64,000 bases of DNA from Candidatus Brocadiia bacterium JP1 (GTDB lineage Bacteria > Planctomycetota > Brocadiia > Brocadiales > Bathyanammoxibiaceae), in contig JBMFFR010000002.1 in assembly GCA_051388875.1 (NCBI GenBank), positions 283,940 to 347,939 of the forward strand, given 5' to 3'. A program made the translations under genes and the position numbers. Positions 29,430 through 60,786 of the stretch are shown in pieces. The notes below the pieces were generated by a model, which was not told where the DNA came from, ran no database searches, and saw only the letters and a program-made list of their open reading frames with translations. Numbering within the stretch: position 1 is the first letter of the stretch; every line of letters starts with the position of its first letter.

Positions 29430-29750
29430 ATGAGGAAGCCTTCAAAAGAGAAAATTATTGATATCCTAAGGAGGGAGTTGCCGTATTTAAGGGAGAGATA
29501 TGGGGTAGAGAAAATTGCTGTCTTCGGTTCTTTTGCAAAGGGATTACAACGTAAAGGAAGCGATGTGGACATCCTTGTGGAACTCAAAAAACCATTGGGG
29601 CTTGATTTTGTAGACCTTGCATACTATCTGGAGGAAGTGCTGAATAAGAAAGTAGATGTAGCAACCTTTGATTGTTTTAAGAATAGTTTCAAAAATCCAA
29701 GGTATAGACCCATTGCTGAGGATATTGAACGTAGCCTAATCTATGTCTAA
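29430..29750 (+). CDS. Nucleotidyltransferase-domain antitoxin (MNT/MntA type)
   Basis: It has GSFAKG...GSDVDILV, the minimal nucleotidyltransferase signature. It overlaps the HEPN gene by 8 nt. Confidence 0.85.
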   Translation: MRKPSKEKIIDILRRELPYLRERYGVEKIAVFGSFAKGLQRKGSDVDILVELKKPLGLDFVDLAYYLEEVLNKKVDVATFDCFKNSFKNPRYRPIAEDIERSLIYV

Positions 29751-30084
29751 AAGAAGGGATATTGATTACCTTGGGGATATTAAAGAGGCGATAGAATTAA
29801 TAATCACATACACGCAAGGATTAGGGTTTGACGAGTTTATTCAGGACAGAAAAACACAGGATGCTGTTATCCGCAATCTTGAGATTATAGGAGAGGCCAC
29901 CAAGAACACATCTGTTCACCTGAGGAAGAAATATCCACAAATCCCTTGGAAGGAATTTGCTGGCCTGAGAGACAAGGTTATCCACCATTACTTTGGAATC
30001 AAACATGACGTAATATGGCAAGTTAAAGAAGAGCTAGCAAAGATTATCCCCAAAATAAGAGAAATTATAGATAAAGAAGTCTAA
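29743..30084 (+). CDS. HEPN-domain toxin (DUF86/HepT type)
   Basis: It has the R-x4-H motif (RDKVIHHY), DUF86-like sequence and pairing with the MNT gene. Confidence 0.85.
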   Translation: MSKRRDIDYLGDIKEAIELIITYTQGLGFDEFIQDRKTQDAVIRNLEIIGEATKNTSVHLRKKYPQIPWKEFAGLRDKVIHHYFGIKHDVIWQVKEELAKIIPKIREIIDKEV

Positions 30085-36176: not shown

Positions 36177-36650
36177 ATGACGTCCCTAAAAAAGGTCTTT
36201 TTCCTGTTTGGTTTGTGTATCGTTACTATGGCTATGGCTAAGCTAACATTGGGCACCTATAGTCGTACCATTCTTATGACCGGGGAAGCACCGCCGATAC
36301 CAGTACCTGAGGAGAAATACAGCCCCAAAATGGTTACATTAAAGGTAGAAGAAAGGGTTACTTATGAGGTGTCAGTTCCTGAGGAAAAACTCCAGCAAGG
36401 GGAAGTAAAGCCACAAGACCTTGATCTGATAGAGGTGCAGGATAAGGAGAGCGTGAACTTCCATCAGATAGATTGCTTTTATTATCGTCCGGTAACCCAG
36501 AGACAGACACGTACCACAGATGCGCTTGTCTGTACCCGTTCCAGAGAGGGCACGGAGTATTGGTTCACCAACAAGACCCGTTTTGTGGAATGGGAGCCCT
36601 GGTCTGAATGGGTAGCTATTCCCAAGAAAGGGCTGGTTAAAAAGGAATAG
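36177..36650 (+). CDS. Hypothetical membrane-anchored/secreted protein
   Basis: The 157-aa product has an N-terminal hydrophobic anchor and AGGAGG upstream. Confidence 0.5.
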   Translation: MTSLKKVFFLFGLCIVTMAMAKLTLGTYSRTILMTGEAPPIPVPEEKYSPKMVTLKVEERVTYEVSVPEEKLQQGEVKPQDLDLIEVQDKESVNFHQIDCFYYRPVTQRQTRTTDALVCTRSREGTEYWFTNKTRFVEWEPWSEWVAIPKKGLVKKE

Positions 36651-36875: not shown

Positions 36876-38135
36876 TTAAGACTGGACTCCCATCCGAGAT
36901 GGCCGTGTTTTACTTTGTCTGCTAATCGGGTCTTTGATGGCCGAGTAATAATTTTTTAATAACATATACTGGTCAAAAAACCCTCTCGCCGAAGTACCCA
37001 GCGGGTGTTTAAAGTAGATGGCAAGCTGGGGCTGTATGCCATGCTCACCCCTACGAAGGGCAAATTCCAATAGCCTGACCAAATCCAGAATCAATGGGGC
37101 AGCCAGTATGGAATCCCTTCCTAACCAGTTTATTTTCATACTCATAGGCATACCGAGCCATCCAGAGAAATCTATACTCTCCCACGCCTCTTTGTTATCA
37201 CCCCTGGGGGCATAGTAATGGATGTCCACAATATGGGGGAAATGGTTATAGCCCAGTATAGGCTCCAGTACCCCTAATTTATCCTCCATCTTGGTCTGCC
37301 TGTGTTCCGGGAGTGCAAGTACCCTGCCATCGTTGTTTCCAAGTATGTTGGTGCTGTACCATCCATCCAGATGCAGATTCCTTATTTTAAACATCTGGGC
37401 TATTACAGTCTTGATAAGGGTCTGGCCGGTGTTACCGTCTCTACCTGCCAGAGGAACCCTCTTTTCTTCGGCCAGTTGCAAGAGGGCGGGCACCTTTAAA
37501 GTTACATTTGGCGTAAAATCCGCAAAGGGACAACCAGTTTCTATCGCAGCAAAGGCATATAACATGGCTGAGCTTATGGATTGGTCATTCTCCCTTAGCG
37601 CCTTCTTAAAACTGTCAATGTCTTTATGGAGTTCCTTTGTTTTAATATGTTTTAAAGGGGAACCCAGAAACACCATCACAGCCTTATCCAGATTATTGTT
37701 TTTCTTGAAAGAGAGTATATCTTGTTTAATGGCAGAAAGCCCTTCCTCCAGCGAAGAGGCTGTGCGGACGTTGTTACCCTTTCTAGCCGAATCTACATCG
37801 TGTGTGGTTACGGTGGCCCTCCAGGGGTGTATTGCTTCTAGTTCGGACCGCAAGCCCTCTACAAGCCATGGCTCCAACACCTTATTGGTGAGGGCAGCCC
37901 TGTAAGCATCCTGTCCATTGACGTCCCAACCGCCGAAGATGAATTGGTCTAGTTGGGAGAGGTTTAGGTGCGAGAAAGACTCAGTCTCAGTTAACATTCC
38001 AAAAAAATTGCTGCTCAGCCCCTTCTTTAGGGCTAGGGAGCCGGCTACCGTTGTGTTTGCCGTGGCCCCATTGAGTCCCACCAACAAAACGCCTATCTTT
38101 TCCTTCTTCATTACCTCATGATTACTCATTATCAT
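36876..38135 (-). CDS. ino1: myo-Inositol-1-phosphate (inositol-3-phosphate) synthase
   Basis: It has an N-terminal Rossmann segment (IGVLLVGLNGATA). The C-terminal half matches the MIPS pattern (GRDGNTGQTLIKT...NILGNNDG...DIHYYAPRGDNKEAWE...RDSILAAPLILDLVRL). I place the start at 38135, where AAGGAGG lies 8 nt upstream. Confidence 0.75.
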   Translation of the reverse strand: MIMSNHEVMKKEKIGVLLVGLNGATANTTVAGSLALKKGLSSNFFGMLTETESFSHLNLSQLDQFIFGGWDVNGQDAYRAALTNKVLEPWLVEGLRSELEAIHPWRATVTTHDVDSARKGNNVRTASSLEEGLSAIKQDILSFKKNNNLDKAVMVFLGSPLKHIKTKELHKDIDSFKKALRENDQSISSAMLYAFAAIETGCPFADFTPNVTLKVPALLQLAEEKRVPLAGRDGNTGQTLIKTVIAQMFKIRNLHLDGWYSTNILGNNDGRVLALPEHRQTKMEDKLGVLEPILGYNHFPHIVDIHYYAPRGDNKEAWESIDFSGWLGMPMSMKINWLGRDSILAAPLILDLVRLLEFALRRGEHGIQPQLAIYFKHPLGTSARGFFDQYMLLKNYYSAIKDPISRQSKTRPSRMGVQS

Positions 38136-38239
38136 TAAATTAACCTCCTTGTGATTGCTGAATTTAATCCTACAATACCTCTGAAAATTTTGCATAATGT
38201 CCTTCTAAACTGCTAAAGGCGGTGAAGAATCTCTGCTGT

Positions 38240-38374
38240 ACCATCAGATTCTTCGCTTCGCTCAGAATGACAATTTTTCTTAACACCCTGTCGTCTCCCA
38301 ACGCCACAGTACCATCAGATTCTCCGCTTCCCCTTCCCCTTTGGCTCAGGGCTTCGGCTCGCTCAGAATGACAA
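38240..38374. repeat. Two copies of the family D dispersed repeat (..GATTCTTCGCTTC...GCTCAGAATGACAA)
   Basis: The copies lie at 38240-38273 and 38311-38374, with a third at 49943-49989. The 86-aa ORF 38170-38430 is composed of these repeats. Confidence 0.8.
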
Positions 38375-38438
38375 TAGGTGTTAGAACCACTTTGGCAGGG
38401 GTCTCCTGCAAAAACAAATTCACCTTTCACTTCTTAGT

Positions 38439-41042
38439 TTACTCCAGGCTATTCAACTGATGTAACTTCCTTGCCTCCTCCTGTATCCTTGTGAGCCTTC
38501 CCATAGTATGAGAGGTCCCCCACCACCAGCTTATATCCTGTTGTGCGTGGGCGGTGCCTTTGTACCCCTGTAAGTGATTCCAGAACCACATCTCCGTATA
38601 CTCCCTCTCTATGGGGCTGGGGTTACCATCAGCCTGGGTAAAAACACCGTACACCCCCAGGACGGGGCCTATAATCGGCAGGTGTCCGCTAGTTTCCCTG
38701 AATTGTTCGTAGAGTTGCGGTCCAAGTTTTTCCGGTCCTAACCTCTCTACCATCAAGTCCCAGAGTGGGTACGGGGGCCTTTCTTCCGGGGTGGGCTTAA
38801 CCACGTTATTGGCAAAAACTTCTTCCAGGAGGAGTTGCGCCCGGTCTACCCTCTGCCATGAGGCGAACATATATTGGTCGGTAGCATCAAACCACATACT
38901 TGAGAAGCGGTTACTATGGCACCTGGTGCATAGCTCCAGCCATAATTGCTTGCGCTTATTGTTTTCTGGGGAATAAATCTCCAGCTTCTTATCCATGGGT
39001 GGAATCTTAACCCCGTATGGGAAATCCTTAATCCTGGATTTAAATTCTACCTCTACCGGTGGGATAACCCCCATGCGCCATATACCCTTCGTTTCTACAT
39101 TCATCTCCCAGCGATTATCTCCTACATACATATGACAGTATTGACAGGTGGGGGAGAGATAATCCTTCCCAGGAACCACTTCAGAGAGTTTCTTTTCCCA
39201 ATCCCATTTCTCCCCGGTAGTATGGTAGAGTATGCCCCATTTGGACATCTCATAACTCTCCCAATCAGGGTGGTCGGGACCCATATGGCAGCCTGCACAT
39301 GCCTCTGGACGGCGGGCCTGCTCGGAGGAAAAGAGGTGGCGGGCATGGCAATCATCGCAGGAGGACATGTTCTGGTGGCACTGGTCGCACCCAACCATGG
39401 CGTGCCCTTCGCCCCTCCGGTAGTTTTCAACATACCAGGGGGTGGACACACTCCCCTCCCAGCTCTGGGTATGATTGGGCTTCCCGTAGTCCCTGCCTCT
39501 GGCGAACTCCTTGGCCTCCTTAGAATGGCAGATACCACAACTATTATCGGCAGTGGGCATGTACAGGTGCTCGTGGTCATGCCCGTGGCAGTAGGAGCAG
39601 TAGACACCGTCCGTGGTGCCAGGTGTCCACGAGTCTAGTTTCTTCCCTATAAGTTCTTCTATTTCCATGGTTTCCTGTGCCTGTTCAGGATTCCTTTTGG
39701 TGTTGGCGTGAGCGGATATTTTCCATTCTTCCACAAGCCCGGGGGTAGCCTCCTCGTGACACTCTATGCACTGCTCGTGGTCATACTTTTTTGAAAGCTC
39801 CTCGTAACGCTGACTGTCGGGTGGCGTATAATGTCTCGTCGGATTGAAATAGGTATAAAAGGGTATAGGTTTATAGGCATCGCCCCAGGGGCCATCGCCC
39901 TGTTTAAGACCAACAAATTTCTCGTACATCTTTTTAAGTGTGGCATCTGGATAGATTAGGGAAGTTGGTGGAACCCCGAGCGTAGGGGGAGATGTCTCAG
40001 AGGAGGAGGCCTGAGAGACCTTTTGACCATCTTGTTTCCCCGTTATTGACGAGGAAGGTGGAGATGCAGGCACTTCCTTTACTTGCTGTGCGGGTTGCGG
40101 TCCTGTTTGTGCTACCAATTTTTCCGCCTCTTCCACCATGAAGATTCCAAACATCCCGTTCATCATGTGTTCGTGGAAGTGGCAGTGAAATATCCAGTTA
40201 CCCGGCCCGACGTCCTTCCCAGCAATGAAGTCCAAGACGTAGGAGGTGAAGGGTACCAGTCCGATGTTATCAATGAGCTGTCCGCTGGCCCTATCTACCC
40301 AGCGGTGGCCATGGGTGTGAAAGGTGTGCACTTCCTCGGCGGAGTTTATTAGATGAAACCTCACTTTCTCTCCCACTCTCGCACGCCAGACAAGTCCTGG
40401 AAAGGCCGCACTATCTCCGTTCATAAACTCTTTGTCTCCGGACTTGTCGTTAAAGGTCTCGTACTCCTTTCCCTCTACAACGAAGGTGTGCATGAAGACC
40501 ACAAATTCTTTGTCCGGAGGGGTAGGATCTCCCTCCTTGGGTTCCACAATCAGGGCGCCCCATAACCCCCTGTAGAGGCCCTCTTGCCCGCCCCTTTCAA
40601 AGGCATGGGTATGGTAAAACCAGGTGCCGGGTGTGCCAGTGGTGTCCCATTCAAAGACCCTTGTGCCCCCTGGTTCAACTATACTCGTTGGATTGCCAGC
40701 AATATGGGCGCCGTCATTGGCTATATCATACTTTACCCCATGGGGATGGACAGAGGCGGGCACGGTGAGCTTGTTGGTGAAATTAATCCTGAGCTTTGTC
40801 CCTTCTCTAACCTTTAGGGTGGGGCCAGGTACGGTGGGCCTTTGCCCTTTGAGGCAGTAACCCCAGGCATCAAAGAATACCCCTGGCCTGAGCTCAAGGC
40901 TTACGGGCCTTGCCTCCATCTCCACTTCAACCACCCCATCCCTGCCGACAAGACAGGGGATTTCAGCGTGGGCGTCATTAAGTAAGACGGTGGAAAATGC
41001 TATTAATGCTAGCAGTAAATAAACTCTTAAGAGCCGGGGCAT
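38439..41042 (-). CDS. Exported fusion protein: two-domain multicopper oxidase + octahaem cytochrome c (HAO/ONR-like)
   Basis: The signal peptide is MPRLLRVYLLLALIAFSTVLLNDAHA. The MCO ligand motifs are HPHG, WFYHTH, HTFHTHGH and HCHFHEHMMNGM (an exact HCH-x3-H-x4-M). A P/S/Q-rich linker of about 50 aa follows. Then come eight CxxCH motifs (CIECH, CSYCH, CGICH, CDQCH, CDDCH, CAGCH, CQYCH, CTRCH). Confidence 0.9.
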   Translation of the reverse strand: MPRLLRVYLLLALIAFSTVLLNDAHAEIPCLVGRDGVVEVEMEARPVSLELRPGVFFDAWGYCLKGQRPTVPGPTLKVREGTKLRINFTNKLTVPASVHPHGVKYDIANDGAHIAGNPTSIVEPGGTRVFEWDTTGTPGTWFYHTHAFERGGQEGLYRGLWGALIVEPKEGDPTPPDKEFVVFMHTFVVEGKEYETFNDKSGDKEFMNGDSAAFPGLVWRARVGEKVRFHLINSAEEVHTFHTHGHRWVDRASGQLIDNIGLVPFTSYVLDFIAGKDVGPGNWIFHCHFHEHMMNGMFGIFMVEEAEKLVAQTGPQPAQQVKEVPASPPSSSITGKQDGQKVSQASSSETSPPTLGVPPTSLIYPDATLKKMYEKFVGLKQGDGPWGDAYKPIPFYTYFNPTRHYTPPDSQRYEELSKKYDHEQCIECHEEATPGLVEEWKISAHANTKRNPEQAQETMEIEELIGKKLDSWTPGTTDGVYCSYCHGHDHEHLYMPTADNSCGICHSKEAKEFARGRDYGKPNHTQSWEGSVSTPWYVENYRRGEGHAMVGCDQCHQNMSSCDDCHARHLFSSEQARRPEACAGCHMGPDHPDWESYEMSKWGILYHTTGEKWDWEKKLSEVVPGKDYLSPTCQYCHMYVGDNRWEMNVETKGIWRMGVIPPVEVEFKSRIKDFPYGVKIPPMDKKLEIYSPENNKRKQLWLELCTRCHSNRFSSMWFDATDQYMFASWQRVDRAQLLLEEVFANNVVKPTPEERPPYPLWDLMVERLGPEKLGPQLYEQFRETSGHLPIIGPVLGVYGVFTQADGNPSPIEREYTEMWFWNHLQGYKGTAHAQQDISWWWGTSHTMGRLTRIQEEARKLHQLNSLE

Positions 41043-41045
41043 GTT

Positions 41046-42014
41046 CTATTCAACGGTGCAAATGGCCTGTGGGCATTTGATTCTAAGTACCGAGCTACCG
41101 ACCACCCTGAAGCGGTGGTTCAGGTTCTCGGGTCCCCAGTACTCTACATGGAAATTAGCACCAACGGCCAGGTCAAGGTTATGTCTGCCCATTGATACAA
41201 CGAGCGCCACATCTTTTTTGAAAAGGTAACTCTGGAATACCCCTCCCTTTACTAGCTCCTTTATTCCATCTATTTCTAATCTCCCCGTCCGCTCGTAAAC
41301 CTTGTGGAGCAGGGCATAGAGCTTTGGGCTGACCACAAGCGCAAATGGCCCATAAAAACCCTGGCTGGTAAGTTTTTCGGTAGCGGCCACTACATCCTGA
41401 AAACCGTTGCCAATCGTGTTCCAATCACTTAGTTTTACGGTGTTTCTGCCTTCCACATTCAAAAGCCCAGCCATGCCCATATCTGGTAAGCCGTTAAATA
41501 TGAGGTCATCTTCCCTGCTGGCGGAGGCAATGGCAGCCCCAATCGCAGTGCTTATATCCAGGGGTGTTTCGCACTTCTTGCTGGACTCAATATCGCGGTA
41601 GTATAGCCAGAAATCCTTATAGATAAGGGGTATGTGGGTAATATCCCTTTTCAAGGTGTGTATTGAAGCGTTGCCTTCGCCAAGCATGTCAATGCTTGCC
41701 TTGCTGGGCACTGCGTAGGTGTCTAGCGGCACACACTGTACACCAGTCCCCAACGGGCCGTAGACCTCAATAAACTTCCTGCCGACAAGGTGTCTCTCTA
41801 CTGTCTCATGGACTGCGCGCTGTACCTTTTCCCAATCTTCATGTCCAAGACAGACCTCAGAGGTAATTTTGGCGCACCCAGACCCGCCACTCTCAAAAGA
41901 GACGGCGGCTTCCTGTCCATTTGCAAAAGAAACCGAAGTCCCTTGAAAGGAGTAAGACAATGCTACTAGAATGAAAAGCACTGTTAGGGTTTGGGGTTTT
42001 GTTAAGGGCATCAT
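41046..42014 (-). CDS. Family 1 encapsulin (linocin M18-like, HK97-fold) shell protein with an N-terminal Sec-type signal peptide
   Basis: Residues ~55-322 follow the encapsulin pattern over their whole length (EDWEKVQRAVHETVERHLVGRKFIEVYGPLG; REDDLIFNG; GPFALVVSP; ALVVSMGRHNLDLAVGANFHVEY; RIKCPQAICTVE). Residues 1-~33 are MMPLTKPQ, then TLTVLFILVALSYSF, then ..SFA. AGGAGG lies 7 nt upstream. No in-frame ATG/GTG/TTG lies between this start and the shell core. Confidence 0.85.
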   Translation of the reverse strand: MMPLTKPQTLTVLFILVALSYSFQGTSVSFANGQEAAVSFESGGSGCAKITSEVCLGHEDWEKVQRAVHETVERHLVGRKFIEVYGPLGTGVQCVPLDTYAVPSKASIDMLGEGNASIHTLKRDITHIPLIYKDFWLYYRDIESSKKCETPLDISTAIGAAIASASREDDLIFNGLPDMGMAGLLNVEGRNTVKLSDWNTIGNGFQDVVAATEKLTSQGFYGPFALVVSPKLYALLHKVYERTGRLEIDGIKELVKGGVFQSYLFKKDVALVVSMGRHNLDLAVGANFHVEYWGPENLNHRFRVVGSSVLRIKCPQAICTVE

Positions 42015-42299: not shown

Positions 42300-42327
42300 A
42301 TTATAAATGAAACCGCGATTTTGTCAA
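42300..42327 (-). promoter_or_regulatory. Sigma70-like promoter of the encapsulin operon
   Basis: On the minus strand: TTGACA (42327-42322), a 16-nt spacer and TATAAT (42305-42300). This implies a leader of about 280 nt. Confidence 0.4.
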
Positions 42328-49942: not shown

Positions 49943-49989
49943 CAGGATTCTTCGCTTCCCCTGCGCCTTTGGCTCACTGAGAATGACAA
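49943..49989. repeat. Family D dispersed repeat, third copy
   Basis: CAGGATTCTTCGCTTCCCCTGCGCCTTTGGCTCACTGAGAATGACAA matches 38311-38374. Confidence 0.8.
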
Positions 49990-50803: not shown

Positions 50804-52051
50804 TCAGTATTCTACCCTCTTTACCCCGCTTGGATGCCAGGCAGGGGATATGACGCCTGGGCCTGTGGCAGGCTCCAGTAACATCCCCCTGGTAACAGTA
50901 AACTCCCCGTATCTGTCGTTAATGGAATCTATGGCATGGGTAAGTTCTCTTTTTCTCTGGTCTTTCTCAAATAGGGGCAGTTGCTCTACCTTGACTAGAT
51001 TACTCATGCTTACCCCTACCATCCTCACTGCTTGCTTTAACCTGAAAGACCTCAGTATGAACATCGCAACGTGGCATATCTCAAGTCCATCGTTCAAATA
51101 CTCCCTTATGGTTTTCTGCTTTGAGACGGTAAAGAAGTCTGAGTATCGTACGGTAAGGGTAACCGTCCTGCCCCGGTAGTGTCCATGTCTGAGTCTCCTT
51201 GCCACCATTTCAGAGAGTAGAAGGATGTAACGTTCAAGGGTCTCATGGTCGTAAATGTCTCTCTCTAAGGTCATGCTGTGGCCAACGGATTTGGCGTCTG
51301 GTTCTTGGCCTAGTGGTATTACAGGGCTATCATCAAGTCCCTGGGCCATAAGGTGAAGTCTCTCTCCTATTACGCCGAATCTATCCTTCAGGTCTCTTGG
51401 TGGAGTCCTTGCCAATTCTCCGCATGTCCTTATACCCATCTCTAAGAGGTGTTTTTCTAACTGTGCTCCTACACCTACCAGGTCTCCTACTGGTAGGTCT
51501 TCAAGGATAGCCTCTGCCTTCTGGTGGTCTTGTATTACCACAAGGCCATCGGGCTTTTGCATATCGCTTGCCAGCTTCGCCAGGAGCTTATTAGGGGCAA
51601 TGCCTATGGAGCAAGTGAGGCCAAAGAGTGCCTTAATCTGACGCTTTATCTCAGAGGCCATTAGCTTCGCTTCGCTCACTACACGGTTTATAGACCCGTG
51701 AAAGAGGTGGGCTGTGCCTGTTACGTCCAGGAAGGCTTCGTCCACTGAGTAAACTTCTACTAGTGGCGTGTACTGCTTATAGAGTTCAACAAGGCGGGTG
51801 CAGGTGTCAATATAGCGTGAGTTGTGGGCCTGGACAAATATAATCTCTGGACATAGCCTCTTTGCCTCTCCCCTGGTCATGCCTGTCTTTACTCCGTAGG
51901 CCCTGGCCTCGTAGGAGGCGGTGGTAATGATAGTCCTCTTTTGAGAGCCTGTAACGGCTATGGGTTTGCCCCTGAGCCTTGGATTTACCTGTTGCTCCAC
52001 AGAGGCGAAGAAGGCGTTCATGTCTATGTGCATAATCACTCTGTAAGGCAT
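50804..52051 (-). CDS. dinB: Y-family DNA polymerase IV
   Basis: It has IMHIDMNAFFASVEQ, SVDEAFLDVTG and the palm/fingers/little-finger order. Confidence 0.9.
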   Translation of the reverse strand: MPYRVIMHIDMNAFFASVEQQVNPRLRGKPIAVTGSQKRTIITTASYEARAYGVKTGMTRGEAKRLCPEIIFVQAHNSRYIDTCTRLVELYKQYTPLVEVYSVDEAFLDVTGTAHLFHGSINRVVSEAKLMASEIKRQIKALFGLTCSIGIAPNKLLAKLASDMQKPDGLVVIQDHQKAEAILEDLPVGDLVGVGAQLEKHLLEMGIRTCGELARTPPRDLKDRFGVIGERLHLMAQGLDDSPVIPLGQEPDAKSVGHSMTLERDIYDHETLERYILLLSEMVARRLRHGHYRGRTVTLTVRYSDFFTVSKQKTIREYLNDGLEICHVAMFILRSFRLKQAVRMVGVSMSNLVKVEQLPLFEKDQRKRELTHAIDSINDRYGEFTVTRGMLLEPATGPGVISPAWHPSGVKRVEY

Positions 52052-52309: not shown

Positions 52310-52951
52310 CTACCCTCCTCTAAAGGGCTTTAAACTCCCCTCTATACGCCTGAGAACTGCTACCACTTTGCCTACTATGGAGACGTCAGACTGTCCTGCC
52401 TTAATCACCACAGGCTTATACTCAGGATTGGCAGGCTCAAGCCTTATCTCTCTGCCCTTTCTATAGAACCTCTTTACAGTGGCCTCACCATCCATGAGGG
52501 CTGCCACTATATCCCCATTTTCGGCAGTGGGCCTGGGTTTTACCACCACATAGTCTCCGTCCTTTATATGTGCCTCAATCATGCTGTCCCCTTCCACCTT
52601 TAAGAGGAAGTTATCGTCCCCGGAGGTGAAAGACCTATCCACTAAAACGTATCCCTGGACGTCCTCTATGGCTGGTTGTGGTGCACCTGCCTTGATGTGG
52701 CCTACCAGTGGAAGGGTAACTGACTGCCGTGACTTAAGAGAATCACAGAACTCAATGGCCCTGGCCTTGCCTGTCCTTTTTATGTAGCCTTTTTGCTCAA
52801 GGGCAGAGAGGCAGTTCTGTACGGCACTGTGGCTGGCTAGCCCAAGTCCGTCTTTTAGCTCTCTTATACTGGGCGGGTAGCCTTTCTCCCGGATATACTC
52901 CTTCAAGAAAGAAAAGACTCTTGATTGGACCTGGGTTAGGGATTCTCTCAT
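52310..52951 (-). CDS. lexA: LexA repressor (wHTH + S24 peptidase)
   Basis: It has GYPPSIRELKDGLGLASHSAVQNCLSALEQKGYIKR (wHTH), the cleavage region VGHIKAGAP, VEGDSM (Ser) and VGKV (Lys). The ATG at 52951 (MRESLTQ) gives the canonical N-terminus. Alternative starts are at 52969 and 52987. Confidence 0.9.
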   Translation of the reverse strand: MRESLTQVQSRVFSFLKEYIREKGYPPSIRELKDGLGLASHSAVQNCLSALEQKGYIKRTGKARAIEFCDSLKSRQSVTLPLVGHIKAGAPQPAIEDVQGYVLVDRSFTSGDDNFLLKVEGDSMIEAHIKDGDYVVVKPRPTAENGDIVAALMDGEATVKRFYRKGREIRLEPANPEYKPVVIKAGQSDVSIVGKVVAVLRRIEGSLKPFRGG

Positions 52952-52953
52952 AC

Positions 52954-52980
52954 GGTACAAATGTACCATATTATATAAGA
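52954..52980 (-). promoter_or_regulatory. Candidate LexA operator (GGTAC-N4-GTACC) overlapping the lexA promoter
   Basis: The minus strand reads TATAAT-ATG-GGTACATTTGTACC-GT-ATG. The inverted repeat lies at 52954-52967, immediately downstream of a consensus -10 and 2 nt upstream of the preferred start codon. Confidence 0.5.
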
Positions 52981-53596
52981 TTGTCAAGCGGTATTCTACG
53001 AGATAAAGTTTAGCAAGACGTGAGGTGGATTTTCATACCTCTGGCTATCATTTGATAACAGTGACATCATCAATGCCTGTTCACTGGGTGTTGGACGTGA
53101 ATTCACAGGCAGTTTACCCTAAACTCCAACTCCCAATATCGGCAGAAGTTCTTCGGTGGTTTGAGGAGGAGGATAGGCAGTCGGGAGTTTTATCTTGAAG
53201 ACGGTAACCAAATTAACCAATCAGGACAGGACGCTAAAAATAAAGTTAACCCACCCGCCTCAGGCGGGCTACCAGACCACAATAAAACTCTTCAAGATAA
53301 GACTCCTTTCCTACTACCTTACATTCCCACGGGAATTTCAGCCCCTTACACGCACAGCCATTTGAGGTATTCAGTGATAATATCTCGGAGAAAAACGAAG
53401 CAATAATGATCGGTCATACTAGATGGGTAGATGTAGATATAAACCAAAACGTAGTTCTGTCCACCCTAAACATCCTAAGAGTGTGGAAAATATCAGGTAT
53501 TTCTTCTTAGCTTTCAGAGAACAAAAACTTGCCCCTTGGGGAAAACCTTGCACACAGTCCTGTCTCCTGTTATAAATTATTCTTTAAGGCTATTGC

Positions 53597-56500
53597 ATGA
53601 AAAACATGGCTAATACCCCTCCTATCCGCGAAGGTCAGATACTTGAGGGAAGTCTTTTCCCTGAGCCCATGAGGGTAGAGACTGTTCGCCCAAATGGTCC
53701 GGATTCATGGGAAGTCGGCCTCGTCGGTTTAGAGACAGAACGCTTCCGAAAGGTTCCCCTTACGCTTGACCAGATAAAAACCCTCGTAATTCAGGAAATA
53801 AGCCAATCTTACAAAGGTGATGGAGATACTCTCAGGCTTGGTCTCCAGGCATATATGCTTGGAATTGCCTACGAGTTTGACCCCTACTTTGGACTTTCTA
53901 TATCTCGCGTAGACCCCCTGCCCCATCAGCTTGAGGCCGTCTATGACTACCTTCTTAAACTTGCAAGAATTCGTTTCCTGCTTGCAGATGACGCAGGTGC
54001 AGGCAAGACCATTATGGCCGGTCTAGTACTCCGTGAACTTAAACTCCGTGGCCTGGCCGAACGTATCCTGGTTGTTTGCCCCGCCAATCTAACCTTCCAG
54101 TGGCAACGTGAGTTAAAAGAAAAGTTTGATGAAAAATTCATCGTCCTTAAAGGTGATGACATACGAGACCAGTACGGTATCAACCAGTGGATGGAACAAA
54201 AACAAATTATAACCTCTCTGGACCTGGCAAAGAGGGACAAGATTCTACCCGGCCTTGGCCAATGTCATTGGCATTTAGTTGTTGTGGATGAGGCCCACAG
54301 GATGTCCTGGACGCCCCCCTCCCGGAAGACAGAACGCTACGCCCTGGGTGAACTCTTAAGAGAATCCTCAGACCATTTTTTACTCTTAACGGCCACACCC
54401 CACAAAGGAGACCCTGCAAATTTCAGCCTTTTCCTGCAATTATTAGACAAGGATGCTTATGCTAACGTACGCTCCATTCAAGAGGCAATGAACCGTCGTT
54501 ATGCCCCCTTTTACCTCAGACGCACAAAGGAGGCAATGGTATATTTCCCTGAGCGGCAGCCAGACGGTACCTGGGCGGCAACAAAAATATTCAAAAAACG
54601 TATCCCCCGCACAATTAATTTTTCAATAGATGACGCAGAGTTTAATTTATACAGGGATGTTACACGCTTCGTAAAACAGCAAAGTACGAAGGCCGCCGCA
54701 ATGGGGGACGACCCGCAAGCAAGGGCGGTAGGGTTCCTGATGTCCCTCTTTCAGCGCCGCCTTGCCTCCAGCACGTATGCATTGAGACATTCATTAGAAA
54801 ACCGTGCTGATCGCCTCGAAAATAGCTTACGTCAGGCCCGAGAGTTGGCCCAAGTGGCACCGCCCGAACTGCCCACCCCGGAAGAACTGGAAGAAATGGA
54901 AGAGGCAGAACGGGAACGGCTGGAAGAATTCATTGAAGCCGTTACAATTACCAGAGACCCACAACAGATACAGGAAGAAATTGAGACCCTCAATGAACTG
55001 GCAAAGCAGGCCAAAGAGGTAGAAAACTCATGTGTTGAGGAGAAACTCAGCCGACTCAAGCAACTTCTACAAGAAGAAGGCTTTTTTGACCACCCAAATA
55101 AGAGGCTACTGATTTTCACTGAATACAGAGATACACTCAGCTACTTAATAAAAAACCTTAAAGACTGGGGATTCAGAGTGGGATACATCCACGGCGGAAT
55201 GAAACCCGGTTCCCGTGATGAGCCAGGCTCTCGTATCTATTCAGAGCAACAGTTCAAAGATGGTGCATTTCAGGTGCTGGTGGCGACCGATGCGGCGGGG
55301 GAGGGTATTAACCTGCAGTGTTGCCATGTCCTTTTCAATTATGACATCCCATGGAACCCAAATAGATTAGAACAAAGGATGGGACGTATCCACCGCTACG
55401 GGCAAAACAAGGACTGCCTGATATTTAACTTCGTTGCCGCAAATACCATTGAGGGAAAAGTGTTACAAAAACTCCTTGAAAGACTTCAGGAGATACGGGA
55501 CGCCCTGGACGACGATTCGGTCTTTAACGTAGTCGGAGAAATCCTACCCGCCGTCCAAATGGAAACGGTACTACGTGACTACTACGCAGGTAAACTAGGA
55601 GATGCAGACCTTGAGGACCGTATTCTGCGTAATGTAAAAGAGGAAAGGTTCAGGGCAATTTGTCAAAACGCCCTTGAAGGTCTGGCTGCTAAGAAGTTAA
55701 ATCTTGAAATGCTAGTGGAACGCCGTGCAAAGGCACAGGAACGACGTGTAGTCCCAGAGACAATCGCCCGCTTCATGCGAGAATCTGCCCCCCTGGTTCC
55801 TTTCACACTGAAGCCTGTCCCATCCCTGCCCCACACCTTTGACCCTTCACCTACACCACAAATCCTCCGGCGCTACGAAAAAAGTCCAAACTGGAAGCTC
55901 CCAGCCCTTGCAACCAGATACCCGAGGCTTTCTGCTGACAGAGAAACCGCAGAAAACAACAACCTTGAATGGGTAACGCCCGGCCACGAACTCTTTGAGG
56001 CCCTGAGACAACATGCCCATGCAACTGCCCAGGAAGCCTTCACGCAGGGGGCTTGTTTTTATTCTCTGGAACATACCAAACCCTCCAAGCTTGATTTCTA
56101 CAAGGCACGCGTGGTGGATGGACTCGGGCATATTATCCATGAACAACTCTTCGCCATAGAGGTCTCTGAAGATGATGAGCCAAAACTCCGAGAACCTGGG
56201 TTCCTGGGGAACCTTCAACCTGCCAGAGCACCAGAGGTTTTACCTCAGGTTGTTAGTCTACCAGAACCCCGCTCCTGGTTACATGAACAGGCCCTGCAAC
56301 CCTTCCTTGAACAGGCCAGGAAGGAACGCCTGGAGGAAGTGGAGCGTATCAGCAGGCACATTGAACTCTCCCTTACTGAACTCATAGCCCGTGAGGATGC
56401 CCTTATCGGTAGATTTGCAGAGGAGGCCGAAAGAGGGGTGGAAGGTGCGGCAGGCCGTCTGAAGCAGGCAGAAGACCGCCAGGCAGAGTTACTGGATAGA

Positions 56501-57040
56501 CGAGAACGCAGGAGACAGGAACTGGAACGTCAGAAGGCACTCTCACTACAGGCCGTAGAAAGAATCACAAGCGTCCTCATCCTGCCCCACCCTGAACGTG
56601 ATAAGCCAGAGGTACGCCGCCTGAAACCAGACGCAGAGGTTGAGGCAATAGCCATGCAAGTTGCTATTGAATGCGAGAGGTCGCAAGGCCGTGCAGTAGC
56701 AGATGTCCACGAGAAAAACCTGGGATACGACCTCACCAGCCTTGATACAAGAAGCGGTAAACTCCGCCTTATTGAGGTAAAGGGAATTGGTGAGGCCACA
56801 GGAACAGTCCTGCTTACACCCAACGAGAAACGCGTGGCTGAAGACCGCAGGGACTGCTACTGGCTATACGTGGTAACCCACTGCAATACTACACCGAAGC
56901 TACAGGAACCCATCAAAGACCCTGCAAGGCTTAGCTGGCATGAGGTTAAAAAGATAGACCATTACTACATGTCAGTTGATGCATTGACACAGCCAATGGA
57001 GGTGCGGGAAGACTCACCGCCATACGAAGGCAAAACATGA
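53597..57040 (+). CDS. SNF2-family helicase with a C-terminal DUF3883 (PD-(D/E)xK nuclease-like) domain
   Basis: The helicase motifs are LLADDAGAGKT (I), VVVDEAHRM (II), LLLTATPH (III) and QRMGRIHRYGQ (VI). A long coiled-coil region follows. The C-terminus NLGYDL...LRLIEVKG...YWLYVV is typical of DUF3883. Confidence 0.88.
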   Translation: MKNMANTPPIREGQILEGSLFPEPMRVETVRPNGPDSWEVGLVGLETERFRKVPLTLDQIKTLVIQEISQSYKGDGDTLRLGLQAYMLGIAYEFDPYFGLSISRVDPLPHQLEAVYDYLLKLARIRFLLADDAGAGKTIMAGLVLRELKLRGLAERILVVCPANLTFQWQRELKEKFDEKFIVLKGDDIRDQYGINQWMEQKQIITSLDLAKRDKILPGLGQCHWHLVVVDEAHRMSWTPPSRKTERYALGELLRESSDHFLLLTATPHKGDPANFSLFLQLLDKDAYANVRSIQEAMNRRYAPFYLRRTKEAMVYFPERQPDGTWAATKIFKKRIPRTINFSIDDAEFNLYRDVTRFVKQQSTKAAAMGDDPQARAVGFLMSLFQRRLASSTYALRHSLENRADRLENSLRQARELAQVAPPELPTPEELEEMEEAERERLEEFIEAVTITRDPQQIQEEIETLNELAKQAKEVENSCVEEKLSRLKQLLQEEGFFDHPNKRLLIFTEYRDTLSYLIKNLKDWGFRVGYIHGGMKPGSRDEPGSRIYSEQQFKDGAFQVLVATDAAGEGINLQCCHVLFNYDIPWNPNRLEQRMGRIHRYGQNKDCLIFNFVAANTIEGKVLQKLLERLQEIRDALDDDSVFNVVGEILPAVQMETVLRDYYAGKLGDADLEDRILRNVKEERFRAICQNALEGLAAKKLNLEMLVERRAKAQERRVVPETIARFMRESAPLVPFTLKPVPSLPHTFDPSPTPQILRRYEKSPNWKLPALATRYPRLSADRETAENNNLEWVTPGHELFEALRQHAHATAQEAFTQGACFYSLEHTKPSKLDFYKARVVDGLGHIIHEQLFAIEVSEDDEPKLREPGFLGNLQPARAPEVLPQVVSLPEPRSWLHEQALQPFLEQARKERLEEVERISRHIELSLTELIAREDALIGRFAEEAERGVEGAAGRLKQAEDRQAELLDRRERRRQELERQKALSLQAVERITSVLILPHPERDKPEVRRLKPDAEVEAIAMQVAIECERSQGRAVADVHEKNLGYDLTSLDTRSGKLRLIEVKGIGEATGTVLLTPNEKRVAEDRRDCYWLYVVTHCNTTPKLQEPIKDPARLSWHEVKKIDHYYMSVDALTQPMEVREDSPPYEGKT

Positions 57041-58959
57041 TACCCAAAGAATGCAAACGCCTGGCGGAGGTGGATTTCCCGATTGCGGTGGTGAGCAAAC
57101 ATTCGGCACGGGAGAAGTCTATCCGCCATGGACATCCATCTACACTCCATTTGTGGTGGGCAAGGAGACCCCTCGCCGCCTGCAGGGCCATTCTCCTGGG
57201 ACTACTACTGCCCGACCCCGTAGACCCCCATTGCCCTGAGGATTTCAAGACAAAGGCAAGGGAGTTGCTCTCACAGATAGGAGGCACTGGCACCACAGAC
57301 TATGATTTACAGCGGGCACTACTGAAATTCATTGGTGACTTCGCCAACTGGGACAATTCGTCTCATGCAACATATTTAAAGGTATCAAGAGGGCTGGTGA
57401 AGGCCGCTCATGGTGAAGAACCGCCACTGGTGGTTGACCCCTTCGCCGGGGGAGGCTCCGTACCCCTTGAGGCCCTGAGGTTAGGTTGCGAAGCCTTTGC
57501 AAGCGACATTAATCCTGTGGCCTGTCTAATCCTGAAGGTAATGCTGGAGGATATTCCACGTCATGGCCCAAAACTGGCAGAGGAACTCAGGCGTGTGGGT
57601 GCAGAGATCAAAAGAGAGGCAGAAAAGGAACTCGCAGAGTTTTATCCAAGAGACCCTGATGGTTCAACCCCGATAGCCTATTTATGGGCAAGGACGGTCA
57701 GGTGCGAGTCGCCTAATTGCGGTGCAGAAATTCCACTGGTTAGGTCTTTCTGGCTGTGTAAAAAGGCCAATAGGAAGAGGGCATTACGCCCCGTTGTCTC
57801 CCCCCTCACCCCAAACCCTCTCCCTGCGGGAGAGGGAAGGGTGATGGAAATCCCTTCTGTTGACTTTGAGATATTTGAGCCAGAATCTGATAAGGACGTA
57901 CCCAATGGTACAGTAAACCGTGCAAAGGCTACCTGCCTCTGCTGTAGTACCGTCCTTCCACCAGACCGTGTCCGTGCCCAGTTAAGGGAACAAAGGGGAG
58001 GGGCAGATGTGGTCTTTGAACCCTCCCCCTCCGGGGGAGGGAAGGGTGAGGGAGAACCCCCCCTCCCCAAACGCATCAGCGGTGCAAGGCTCCTGGCCGT
58101 GGTTACTCTAAGACCCGGTGAACAGGGCAGACACTACCGCCTGCCTACCGAACAAGATTACCTGGCAGTCTGGAAGGCACAACGCAAGCTCAGGGAAATC
58201 CTGGACGAGTGGGAGCGGGAAGGCAGAAAGGGCCTCTGCCCCGTACCAGATGAGTCAAGCCCGGAAGGTGGAGGGTCCGGTGCTGGGCGAGCTTTCTCTG
58301 TTCGCAAGTACGGCATGAATACCTTTGGGGATCTCTTCATGGCGAGGCAGAAGGTGGGGATGGTGATATTGATAAAGTACACAAAAAAACAGATAAATTC
58401 AGAAGTCACACCTATTCTTGGTCTATTGCTTGGGAAGTCGGCTGATGGTAATAATTCGCTTTCACGTTGGATGGCAGGTTACGAAAATCCGGTAAACCTG
58501 TTTTCTCGTCAAGCGATGCCTATTGTCTGGGATTTTTGTGAATCTACTCCAACTAGTGAAGCTCGTGGAGTCTTTTTAGCCGGCATTTATAGTGCTCAAG
58601 AAGTTATTGATACAAATCATTTCATTGATTCCGGTCAGGTTCAAAAAGTAAATGCTTCTCAAATACTGTTACCTAATGATGCTTGCAATGTTTGGTTTAC
58701 CGATCCACCTTACTACGATGCTATACCTTATTCAGATTTATCTGACTTCTTCTTTGTATGGTTAAAACGAGCTTTGCCAGGTCATCCTCTCCTATGTGAT
58801 CCATTCGATTTGACAAACCCTTTAACGCCCAAGGTGCAAGAAATTGTTCAGGATGAGACTAACAGTTTGATGGGAGGCCAAAAGACAGACAGTTCTTTGA
58901 AGACAGGATGGCCTGTGCCTTTGCTGAAGGACGGAGGATATTACGAGATGATGGGGTAG
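57037..58959 (+). CDS. DUF1156-domain DNA methyltransferase, N-terminal ~2/3 (gene interrupted by a frameshift)
   Basis: DUF1156 N-terminus: DFPIAVVSKHSAREKSIRHGHPSTLHLWWARRPLAACRA. SAM motif I: VVDPFAGGGS. Zn-ribbon cysteines: CESPNC...CLCC. Catalytic motif IV: FTDPPYYDAIPYSDLSDFF. It overlaps the helicase stop by 4 nt. Confidence 0.85.
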   Translation: MIPKECKRLAEVDFPIAVVSKHSAREKSIRHGHPSTLHLWWARRPLAACRAILLGLLLPDPVDPHCPEDFKTKARELLSQIGGTGTTDYDLQRALLKFIGDFANWDNSSHATYLKVSRGLVKAAHGEEPPLVVDPFAGGGSVPLEALRLGCEAFASDINPVACLILKVMLEDIPRHGPKLAEELRRVGAEIKREAEKELAEFYPRDPDGSTPIAYLWARTVRCESPNCGAEIPLVRSFWLCKKANRKRALRPVVSPLTPNPLPAGEGRVMEIPSVDFEIFEPESDKDVPNGTVNRAKATCLCCSTVLPPDRVRAQLREQRGGADVVFEPSPSGGGKGEGEPPLPKRISGARLLAVVTLRPGEQGRHYRLPTEQDYLAVWKAQRKLREILDEWEREGRKGLCPVPDESSPEGGGSGAGRAFSVRKYGMNTFGDLFMARQKVGMVILIKYTKKQINSEVTPILGLLLGKSADGNNSLSRWMAGYENPVNLFSRQAMPIVWDFCESTPTSEARGVFLAGIYSAQEVIDTNHFIDSGQVQKVNASQILLPNDACNVWFTDPPYYDAIPYSDLSDFFFVWLKRALPGHPLLCDPFDLTNPLTPKVQEIVQDETNSLMGGQKTDSSLKTGWPVPLLKDGGYYEMMG

Positions 58960-60131
58960 GTTGTGTGGTATTTGCCCACAAGACCACTGAAGGCTGGGAG
59001 GCCCTTCTAACTGGCATGATTCGGGGTGGCTGGACAATTACTGGTTCCTGGCCCATTCTTACCGAGATGGGAAGTCGCCTCCGTGCCCGTGAATCCGCGG
59101 CCCTTGCTACCAGCGTCCACCTTATCTGCCGCCCGAGGCCTGACAATGCCCCGGTGGGCGATTGGGGAGAGAAACTTCATGAACTTCCCAATCGCATAGG
59201 GGATTGGATGGAGAGGCTCTCTGGTGAGGGCATAAGGGGTGCCGATTTGGTCTTCGCCTGTATTGGCCCTGCGCTGGAATTATTCAGCAAATATTCTAAA
59301 GTAGAAACTGCGGAAGGGCGTACGGTGGAACTGCCCGAATTCCTTGAGAAGGTGTGGGAGGTGGTGGGGCGAACTGCCCTTGGTCAAATACTTGGCACTG
59401 CAGAGGCACGGGCACGCAATAGCGCCGCCGGCGCCCTTGAAGAGGACGCACGCCTCACCGCCCTATTCCTCTGGACACTTCAGTCCACAGAGGTAGGACA
59501 GGCAGGATGCCTGTCACCAAATAACAGCGAGATTGACGAAGGGGAAGAGGCTGAAGAGGAACCAGATGAGGAAGAGGCCCAAAAAAGTAAGGGGAAGAAG
59601 GGCCAGAGCTTGATATTTGATGTGGTACGACGTTTCGCCCAACCCCTTGGTATTCATCTTCAGATATGGGAGGGCCGAATAATTGAGACAGAGAAGGGTA
59701 TTGTGCGTCTGCTATCTGTGAAAGAGAGGGCCAGGCAATTGTTTGGAGAAGACGGGGCCTCTGCCATTGCAGACCAGATAGAACACAGTACGCCGGATCC
59801 CCTACAACAGCTACTCTCCTTTGCTAAAAAAGGGGTTGATGACGTTCCAAGAATCCTGGGCAAGGGCAAGGCCAGGGGTAGAAAGACCGGGACAGGTCTA
59901 GAAAAGGACTTGCAAACAAGGCAAGAAGCTACTACCTTAGACAGGGTGCATGCGGCAATGTTATTACAGGCGAGCGGACGGGCAAACGCACTGAAGGCAC
60001 TCTTAAAGGCAGAGCAACAACGAGGCCCTGATTTTCTAAGGCTCGCCAACGCCCTCTCTGCCCTGTATCCAAAAGATAGTGAGGAAAAACGCCTATTGGA
60101 TGCTATGCTACTGGCCGTGCCTCGTACATGA
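58908..60131 (+). CDS. DUF1156-type methyltransferase, C-terminal ~1/3 (continuation in the -1 frame)
   Basis: This frame is open from 58863 and encodes ..GRPKDRQFFEDRMACAFAEGRRILRDDGVGCVVFAHKTTEGWEALLTGMIRGGWTITGSWPILTE. That is the region that normally follows the DPPY motif in these enzymes. Confidence 0.8.
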   Translation: MACAFAEGRRILRDDGVGCVVFAHKTTEGWEALLTGMIRGGWTITGSWPILTEMGSRLRARESAALATSVHLICRPRPDNAPVGDWGEKLHELPNRIGDWMERLSGEGIRGADLVFACIGPALELFSKYSKVETAEGRTVELPEFLEKVWEVVGRTALGQILGTAEARARNSAAGALEEDARLTALFLWTLQSTEVGQAGCLSPNNSEIDEGEEAEEEPDEEEAQKSKGKKGQSLIFDVVRRFAQPLGIHLQIWEGRIIETEKGIVRLLSVKERARQLFGEDGASAIADQIEHSTPDPLQQLLSFAKKGVDDVPRILGKGKARGRKTGTGLEKDLQTRQEATTLDRVHAAMLLQASGRANALKALLKAEQQRGPDFLRLANALSALYPKDSEEKRLLDAMLLAVPRT

Positions 60132-60192
60132 TTTCATACTAGTAAAGATTTAATGACACACGGAACCAGTTAAGGGAGAAAAAGGGGAAAGC

Positions 60193-60474
60193 GTGCTTAA
60201 GCGAATCTTGGACCAAATGAAGGATAAGATTCGCAGGCGATTGTATGTCATGACGCTTCATGCTGAAGAAGAAATGAATGAAGATGGTTTGACGATTTAC
60301 GATGTTGAAAGTAGTATTCTCACCGGGGAGATACTTGAACGCCAGAAGGACAGAGTGACTTCAGAATGGAAATACCGAATTAGCGGGCATGCCGTTTCAG
60401 GTGGTAAGGTTGAGGTGATTGTGAAGTTAAGTCCAACTGGCAAGTTGGTCATTATTACTGTTTATATCCCATAA
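60193..60474 (+). CDS. DUF4258-family putative toxin
   Basis: The 93-aa product has LHAEEEMNEDGLTIYDVESSILTGEILE, matching the DUF4258 pattern (H..eRM..r.I....v..vl..G). Confidence 0.7.
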   Translation: MLKRILDQMKDKIRRRLYVMTLHAEEEMNEDGLTIYDVESSILTGEILERQKDRVTSEWKYRISGHAVSGGKVEVIVKLSPTGKLVIITVYIP

Positions 60475-60491
60475 AAACTGGAGGGGATCAG

Positions 60492-60719: not shown

Positions 60720-60786
60720 AAATGCAAAATGAATCCTGACACACCTGCCTGTCAGTGGAATATAACTTAATAAGAGGTAAATAGAT

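Follow-up and report, generated by a model that had tools for sequence, protein, structure and literature searches.

An encapsulin-linked fusion of a laccase-type copper module to a probably reductive octahaem module in a Brocadiia genome

Two adjacent genes on the reverse strand are the subject here. They lie in a stretch of 64,000 nucleotides (nt) from Candidatus Brocadiia bacterium JP1 (GenBank assembly GCA_051388875.1, contig JBMFFR010000002.1, positions 283,940 to 347,939), which I call the window. One encodes an encapsulin shell protein and the other a protein that joins a multicopper oxidase (MCO) to a module of the hydroxylamine oxidoreductase (HAO) family. A preliminary description of the second gene read it as a laccase-type copper module and an HAO-like octahaem module, tied together into an enzyme that oxidises a substrate at its haems and reduces O2 at its copper. 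The anatomy stands, but the proposed wiring is unlikely. The features of the two genes, in window coordinates, are these:

42300..42327 (−): promoter-like TTGACA-16 nt-TATAAT 5' of the encapsulin gene, matching the consensus at 12 of 12 positions
41046..42014 (−): family-1 encapsulin shell gene, 322 amino acids (aa), by Linocin_M18, encap_f1 and 4pt2 matches
38439..41042 (−): MCO-HAO fusion gene, 867 aa plus stop, a single uninterrupted open reading frame (ORF)
40965..41042 (−): predicted Sec-type signal peptide, residues 1-26, MPRLLRVYLLLALIAFSTVLLNDAHA, read from the sequence
40125..40964 (−): SLAC-like (type B) two-domain MCO module, residues 27-306, by Pfam, PDB, fold search and alignment
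40740..40748 (−): H99-P-H101 (HPHG block), ligands of type 2 (T2) and type 3 (T3) copper, by motif script and Ssl1 alignment
40605..40622 (−): WFYH144-T-H146 (WFYHTH at residue 141), two T3 ligands, by motif script and Ssl1 alignment
40305..40328 (−): H239-TF-H242-T-H244-G-H246 (HTFHTHGH block), ligands of type 1 (T1), T2 and T3 copper, by motif script and Ssl1 alignment
40152..40187 (−): H286-C287-H288-x3-H292-x4-M297, in order T3, T1 Cys, T3, T1 His and axial Met, by motif script and Ssl1 alignment
39957..40124 (−): interdomain linker rich in P/S/Q, 56 aa, residues 307-362, 70% P/S/Q/T/A/G, from the sequence, with pLDDT below 30 in the AlphaFold2 model
38442..39956 (−): HAO-family octahaem module of the kustc0458/HAOr type, residues 363-867 (505 aa), by profile and PDB matches
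39756-39770, 39585-39599, 39525-39539 and 39375-39389 (−): CxxCH motifs 1-4 of the fusion, by motif script
39345-39359, 39285-39299, 39132-39146 and 38916-38930 (−): CxxCH motifs 5-8 of the fusion, by motif script
39270..39275 (−): D590-H591, aligned with the distal pair Asp267-His268 of Nitrosomonas europaea HAO (NeHAO), invariant in 20 orthologues
38520..38528 (−): W839-W840-W841 at the position of the cross-link Tyr, with no Tyr, by alignments and the structure-based assignment in BpMHAO (an orthologue introduced below)

In the fusion protein Pfam recognises Cu-oxidase_3 at residues 70-170 (6.7e-24), Cu-oxidase_2 at 208-306 (1.5e-18) and Multi-haem_cyto (4.5e-43), and 16 of the 19 cysteines are taken up by the eight CxxCH motifs. 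Matches to SLAC-type structures (E about 1e-38) and to the HAO-like structure 6h5l (1e-151) give strong support to homologous domains around the motifs, which are not chance strings. Signal peptides have been reported for orthologues of the protein as well (10.1101/085266; 10.64898/2026.07.28.741245).

All four copper blocks of the preliminary description (HPHG, WFYHTH, HTFHTHGH and HCH-x3-H-x4-M) were found again, by Pfam and by script, in two cupredoxin domains; the last of them reads HCHFHEHMMNGM at residue 286. Ligand roles were assigned by SLAC numbering. The assignments also follow those made for BpMHAO, the protein bpit_14680 of Ca. Brocadia pituitae, in a preprint of July 2026 (10.64898/2026.07.28.741245; the BpMHAO preprint from here on) that classed it as a type-B two-domain MCO. 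The T1 set (H239, C287, H292, M297) lies wholly within the second cupredoxin domain. The eight histidines of the trinuclear cluster are all present, H99 and H242 for T2 and H101, H144, H146, H244, H286 and H288 for T3. Altogether 12 of 12 laccase-type ligands are in place, and a residue-level alignment with the small laccase Ssl1 (4m3h) has the four blocks in register, so the completeness of the copper set survives proper alignment.

The relatives of the module tell the same story. Its best PDB sequence matches are two-domain laccases from Streptomyces and Amycolatopsis, with E-values of about 1e-36 to 1e-38 and nearly the whole domain covered; MnxG, 3GDC and ceruloplasmin come afterwards, at far weaker E-values. 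A full-length AlphaFold2 monomer model was built from a 20-sequence alignment, and the copper module alone was used from it (pLDDT 70-90). When this module was compared with the PDB by Foldseek, the best 50 matches were without exception of SLAC type (TM-scores of 0.72-0.76, normalised to the target). There is no NirK among the top 60 sequence matches or the top 50 fold matches, and the NirK equivalog TIGR02376 gives only a weak, partial match, mainly over domain 1, of 71.5 bits against a cutoff of 296.3. By alignment and modelled fold, then, the copper module is a SLAC-type (type B) two-domain MCO and not a NirK, just as the preliminary description had it.

The C-terminal module also bears out what was said of it: a script counts exactly eight CxxCH motifs, at residues 425, 482, 502, 552, 562, 582, 633 and 705, in a domain of 505 aa that is clearly HAO-like. 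Its closest solved relative is Kuenenia kustc0458/HAOr (6H5L), matched over the full module with about 60% identity over some 500 aa. NeHAO, kustc1061 and hydrazine dehydrogenase (HDH) are next, with E-values of 1e-30 to 1e-44, and the hydrazine dehydrogenase equivalog, whose cutoff is 900 bits, reaches 135. In 20 full-length orthologues, the set used for every ligand comparison below, all eight haem motifs are invariant. So is D590-H591, the counterpart of NeHAO Asp267-His268, which I take to be the distal pair of the catalytic haem.

What is missing is the Tyr that in oxidative HAOs of the P460 type (NeHAO, kustc1061, HDH) comes from the adjoining subunit and is cross-linked to haem 4. In its place stands S838-W-W-W841. 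NeHAO Y467 (GGWTYTEG) falls over this segment, specifically over W841, in a weak local HMMER alignment; the Trp assigned to the position in BpMHAO, W782 of the mature protein and W807 of the precursor, corresponds to W839. Whichever it is, the S-W-W segment is invariant and without Tyr in the orthologues, and in kustc0458, too, SWWWG stands at the Tyr position. Kustc0458/HAOr acts as a reductase on nitrite, NO and hydroxylamine and is unable to oxidise either hydroxylamine or hydrazine (Ferousi et al., PMC8042395). Taken together, the absent Tyr and the nature of this reductase make a reductive haem site most likely, and the haem module is probably a reductase.

Between the two modules runs the linker, P/S/Q-rich as had been claimed. 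Across the orthologues nothing of it is conserved but the closing PPTL...GSF-like stretch, and its length varies from 20 to 73 aa, a variation that speaks against a fixed geometry between the modules. In the AlphaFold3 trimer of BpMHAO, 33 Å separate the nearest copper and haem (10.64898/2026.07.28.741245).

The gene upstream is no less easily identified. Its product matches Pfam Linocin_M18 (6.2e-62) and NCBIfam encap_f1 (242.9 bits, the cutoff being 100), and its best PDB match is Myxococcus xanthus EncA (4pt2, 4.6e-77). An AGGAGG ribosome-binding site precedes its ATG at 42014, and the ATG of the fusion lies 3 nt past its stop codon, so that the two genes form an operon. No ferritin-like gene is part of it. 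The shell protein begins with a signal-peptide-like segment and a short extension without CxxCH; the dihaem cytochrome domain of the Brocadia/Jettenia shell protein "cEnc" is thus absent from the window encapsulin by N-terminal comparison. Whether the cEnc domain is a homologue of kustc0457 was considered and the idea dropped: a PDB search gave marginal, generic multihaem matches (E at least 0.008). A search for canonical encapsulin targeting peptides at the C-termini of ORFs throughout the window returned a single, coincidental match, GSLK in LexA. The linker end PPTL...GSF was rejected as an internal targeting peptide, because the N-terminal arm of the free-standing kustc0458 aligns to the same stretch.

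By domain order and identity the fusion is a new orthologue of an anammox family that goes by the names kuste2479 (the protein of Ca. Kuenenia stuttgartiensis), "NIR-HAO" and BpMHAO. Giessen and Silver (10.1101/085266) described an operon of cEnc with NIR-HAO and noted the missing Tyr. Tracey et al. (PMC6934571) added cytochrome-less shells, reported from a Rifle aquifer metagenome-assembled genome (MAG) an 867-aa fusion beside an inositol-phosphate synthase, the layout found in the window, and gave the CDD class of the copper part as "NiR-like two-domain laccase". The BpMHAO preprint found T1, T2 and T3 copper by electron paramagnetic resonance and, for the copper domain, weak ABTS and O2-dependent ferroxidase activities and no nitrite reductase activity. 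It found hydroxylamine reductase activity and a Trp at the Tyr position in the haem domain. Encapsulin goes unmentioned there, though the B. pituitae locus has one. The preprint covers most of the checks that the preliminary description had proposed; that description had overlooked the encapsulin gene, only 3 nt upstream, as well as the earlier publications on such fusions. The fusion and its laccase-type assignment are, in short, already published, and what is new here is a divergent orthologue.

How divergent may be judged from a scan for related loci, one genome per GTDB species, which found 22. Their sources are limited to Brocadia, Jettenia, Kuenenia, Loosdrechtia, Scalindua and Planctomycetota MAGs from groundwater. 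Full-length identity of the fusion to family members is 60-76%, with 66% to the B. pituitae locus and 66% to the Rifle protein; the closest orthologue, at 76%, the maximum to any other sequence found, is that of nzgw511. A neighbour-joining tree groups the fusion with nzgw511 and then with the Rifle clade. When 1.84 billion cluster representatives were searched with HMMER, the MCO-HAO fusion formed a single full-length cluster at 50% identity. No second family of such fusions turned up in the 8 matches checked among the best 150 of 5713, the long candidates being MCO-only or haem-only.

In each of the 20 related loci where the flank in question is available, an encapsulin gene is adjacent; in that of B. 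pituitae (L019) it is directly upstream. It lies upstream of the fusion in freshwater types and downstream in Scalindua types, which have the gene for myo-inositol-1-phosphate synthase upstream. According to the BpMHAO preprint, Scalindua does not have the fusion (10.64898/2026.07.28.741245); the Scalindua-type loci L012, L013 and L018 carry it. The dihaem extension of the shell, with its two CxxCH, is present only in Brocadia/Jettenia-type loci. One locus of an uncultured Brocadiaceae (L007, CAZPUD010000103.1) has two encapsulin genes upstream of the fusion, at 2971-3945 and 4744-5883 and about 800 nt apart, one with the dihaem cytochrome domain and one without. The pair could be a snapshot of the origin of cEnc, or a two-component shell.

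Against the constancy of the haem motifs must be set the fate of the copper ligands. They are complete in the window protein, in nzgw511, in the Rifle clade and in most Brocadia/Jettenia-type sequences. Kuenenia-type proteins have M, L or Y for H146 and Q for H288, so that two histidines of the trinuclear cluster are gone. In Loosdrechtia the changes are H288N and H292R. From Scalindua-type proteins the "HC" of HCH is gone, T1 Cys included, along with many other ligand histidines. The decay shows in the overall sequence too: among orthologues with decayed copper the MCO modules average 57% pairwise identity and the HAO modules 78%, compared with 78% and 76%, respectively, among those with complete copper. 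If ligands can be lost in several lineages while the haem module stays intact, then copper/O2 chemistry is not the conserved core of the fusion. A fold kept after its copper chemistry has become dispensable fits a role in scaffolding, loading or trimerisation in the decayed lineages, and in lineages like that of the window the copper module fits an accessory redox role.

I propose that the fusion is probably an encapsulin-linked anammox MCO-HAO cargo with a reductive haem core and a tethered, accessory copper module. Shell and fusion would both be exported, to the anammoxosome by analogy with Kuenenia. SLAC-type two-domain MCOs, whose trinuclear cluster sits at the interfaces between subunits, and HAO proteins are both trimers, and the fusion would trimerise through both its modules and be packaged in the shell, or attached to it. 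The conserved catalytic core would be the cross-link-free haem-4 site, acting reductively on hydroxylamine, nitrite or NO, as has been shown of kustc0458/HAOr and the BpMHAO haem domain. The copper module would be a tethered accessory and not a rigidly wired partner that reduces O2. Where the 12 ligands are kept, as in the window protein, it probably still binds four coppers, and may dump electrons on trace O2 or oxidise Fe(II). Where they have decayed, it would persist as a scaffold that may help to load the shell or to form the trimer.

Several points weigh against this proposal. The haem module of the AlphaFold2 model is unreliable (pLDDT below 50). The equivalent of NeHAO Tyr467 is ambiguous between W839 and W841, the alignment being weak (3.3 bits). 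The fusion protein has no canonical C-terminal encapsulin targeting peptide. Packaging of the full-length cargo would be an extrapolation, since the part of the cargo shown to co-purify with shells is the Kuenenia NIR domain only, in E. coli (10.1101/085266). The activities of BpMHAO were obtained with truncated domains and artificial donors, for the haem domain in cell extracts only, and their source is a preprint that has not been peer reviewed (10.64898/2026.07.28.741245). All 12 ligands have been kept here, in Brocadia, in Jettenia and in the Rifle clade, which argues for selection on copper chemistry there, and "accessory" may understate the role of the copper module.

The alternative I would hear first, unlikely as it is, is that in complete-copper lineages the laccase-like and reductive octahaem modules form a redox couple confined in the encapsulin lumen. 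In one version the pair would handle O2 or Fe(II) so as to protect the anammoxosome or supply it, and the flexible linker would, in the crowding of the shell, bring the T1 copper of one trimer to a peripheral haem of its neighbour. If this were true, then the repeated losses of copper sites from Kuenenia and Scalindua would show that a single cargo family had divided in function.

Somewhat harder to credit is a terminal oxidase that scavenges O2. The haem module would be a wire that collects electrons, fed by soluble cytochromes c or, where present, by the dihaem domain of cEnc, and the copper module would reduce stray O2 and so protect the anaerobic organelle. The copper set is indeed complete in the window protein and several other lineages, the copper domain of BpMHAO consumes O2 (preprint), maintenance of anaerobiosis has been raised before (Tracey 2019, PMC6934571), and dysoxic aquifers are the source of the closest relative, nzgw511 (PMC8862662). 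The orthologues of Kuenenia and Scalindua, however, have no functional trinuclear cluster or T1 site. The encapsulin in the window has no cytochrome domain to feed the wire, and the wire must cross the same distance between copper and haem, with the same linker, that troubles the oxidase considered next. The activities of BpMHAO are also low, and their stoichiometry of 2:1 Fe:O2 suggests that H2O2 is made, not water.

The reading of the preliminary description, a substrate:O2 oxidoreductase, now looks quite improbable. A small N-compound such as hydroxylamine or hydrazine, or a metal, would be oxidised at the octahaem site and its electrons would pass through the haems to T1, to the trinuclear cluster and to O2. 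The parts are present, 12 laccase-type ligands and eight haem motifs, both parent families are trimers, and the route from haem to copper to O2 is downhill, T1 and T2 of BpMHAO being already reduced at +136 mV (preprint). The lineages with complete copper even include groundwater anammox MAGs of low-oxygen, dysoxic sites (PMC8862662). But a reductive haem site undercuts oxidation of substrate at the haems with electrons sent on to O2. There is no cross-link Tyr, neither NH2OH nor N2H4 is oxidised by the closest homologue of solved structure (PMC8042395), and hydroxylamine oxidation by the BpMHAO haem domain did not rise above the control (preprint). Nor would the wiring be simple: the published gap in the BpMHAO trimer is 33 Å and the linker is flexible and variable in length. 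Finally, Kuenenia-, Loosdrechtia- and Scalindua-type orthologues have lost copper sites and kept all eight haem motifs.

Very improbable, too, is an encapsulin for handling iron, in which the copper module is a ferroxidase that mineralises Fe(II) inside an EncA-like shell, with O2 as the oxidant or the haem module acting on N-oxides. It would explain the iron-rich particles of about 25 nm in the anammoxosome. The shell comes closest to encapsulins that store iron, those of the M. xanthus EncA and Q. thermotolerans type, iron storage has been proposed for anammox encapsulins (PMC8346489, PMC6934571), and with O2 the copper domain of BpMHAO can oxidise as many as 40 Fe(II) per protein (preprint). 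That ferroxidase activity depends on O2, however, and the authors of the preprint judged it non-physiological; to pass electrons from a T1 of high potential to the haems would be uphill and unfavourable. Moreover, the copper ligands have been lost in Kuenenia, the very organism in which iron-rich particles were seen, and the operon has no gene for a ferritin-like protein.

The historical annotation of the N-terminal module as a copper nitrite reductase of the NirK type that turns nitrite into NO ("NIR-HAO"), which lives on in the labels NIR or nirK (10.1101/085266, PMC4913261) and could appeal to the partial TIGR02376 match, is effectively excluded: that match is far under its cutoff, the T1 ligands lie in domain 2 with an HCH triad and eight cluster histidines, the best sequence and fold matches are all of SLAC type, and the BpMHAO copper domain has no nitrite reductase activity (preprint).

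The host itself can be placed approximately. Its leucyl-tRNA synthetase, encoded in the window, is 77-85% identical to proteins of Planctomycetota MAGs, 69-72% to "Ca. Brocadiales bacterium" sequences and 64-66% to those of Brocadia, Jettenia and Scalindua, which would put it near Brocadiales. Genes in the window other than the operon are for housekeeping and defence only, and the host is a presumed anammox bacterium of groundwater type. Nzgw511 is an anammox MAG that bears hzs and hzo and reaches its highest abundance in low-oxygen groundwater (PMC8862662).

Directly adjoining the operon is a gene for myo-inositol-1-phosphate synthase (36876-38195, −), as in Scalindua-type loci; the same neighbour was noted for the Rifle and SCAELEC01 MAGs (Tracey 2019, PMC6934571). 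The adjacency may be ancestral synteny or a functional link. The 243-nt gap between this gene and the fusion holds two copies of a repeat of about 40 nt, TTGTCATTCTGAGCGA[A/G][G/C]CGAAG ... GAATCTGATGGTAC, with a third elsewhere in the window:

38251-38273 and 38352-38374 (−): copies of the ~40-nt repeat, zero chance matches expected
49967-49989: diverged third copy

The repeat gives rise to a spurious ORF at 38170-38430, and may be a small dispersed intergenic repeat. An ORF of 157 aa at 36177-36650 (+), with an N-terminal hydrophobic segment and no Pfam match, is 74% conserved next to the fusion gene of nzgw511 (L001), on the opposite strand, and was undetected in the other loci.

Further away, an Hma-type defence cluster occupies 53597-63543 (+), with HmaA (SNF2 helicase, 9e-171), HmaB (DUF1156 adenine methylase) and HmaC (DUF499 AAA+ ATPase, 4e-90). 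HmaB apparently falls into a pair of ORFs that overlap (57037-58959 and 58908-60131), a sign of a frameshift or of a gene in two parts. The gene of a LexA repressor (52310-52987) adjoins one for a Y-family, IMS/DinB-like polymerase (50804-52051, −), a pair of the SOS mutagenesis type, and an ORF at 29743-30084 (+) encodes a HepT-like ribonuclease toxin (Pfam 4e-27). An Rfam scan of the window gave no matches.

A large share of the fixed nitrogen in oceans and wastewater is removed by anammox bacteria. The wider question that this locus touches is what most of their ten or so HAO paralogues do, and what their encapsulins are for. The locus adds an orthologue at no more than 76% identity, whose copper site is fully intact, whose linker is long and whose shell has no cytochrome domain. 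Comparing it with the rest of the family yields two functional constraints. The haem module is invariant in its motifs even in the types that have shed copper ligands (Kuenenia, Loosdrechtia and Scalindua at least), and the encapsulin is linked in every informative locus, B. pituitae among them. The comparison also joins two literatures that have named one protein differently, "NIR-HAO cargo" in the one and "MHAO" in the other.

How does the fusion compare with systems already known? It is most like kuste2479 and BpMHAO, with which it shares the order of signal peptide, two-cupredoxin MCO, linker and octahaem module without cross-link Tyr, and also the adjacent encapsulin gene. Its copper set is complete as in BpMHAO, unlike that of the Kuenenia orthologues, which are without two histidines of the trinuclear cluster. 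At 56 aa the linker is longer than in most orthologues from Brocadia and Jettenia, where it measures about 20 aa, and the partner encapsulin is cytochrome-less, as in the systems of the Rifle MAG and B. caroliniensis (PMC6934571).

With kustc0458/HAOr the haem module has in common the eight haem motifs, the Asp-His pair and the SWWWG at the Tyr position. Kustc0458/HAOr is free-standing, however, in an α6β6 complex with the dihaem kustc0457, while the fusion has an N-terminal copper module and a link to encapsulin. Differing from kustc0458/HAOr, the haem domain of BpMHAO in extracts reduced hydroxylamine and not nitrite.

The SLAC-type laccases of Streptomyces (3CG8, 4M3H, 3TAS) resemble the copper module over the whole domain, at about 30-33% identity, and share its four copper motifs, T1 in domain 2 and HCH triad. 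The fusion protein differs from them in its extra haem module of 505 aa and its anaerobe lineage, and its orthologue BpMHAO has weak laccase activity and atypical spectra (10.64898/2026.07.28.741245). NirK is a distant homologue from a trimeric family, also with two cupredoxin domains, but has T1 in domain 1, a single catalytic T2 copper and HC instead of HCH.

Other family-1 encapsulin systems, such as M. xanthus EncA with its ferritin-like cargo and the DyP encapsulins, are alike in the family of the shell and in having the cargo in the same operon. They differ in that the cargo here is without a canonical targeting peptide, shell and cargo both have signal-peptide-like N-termini, and the cargo is an 867-aa Cu/haem enzyme.

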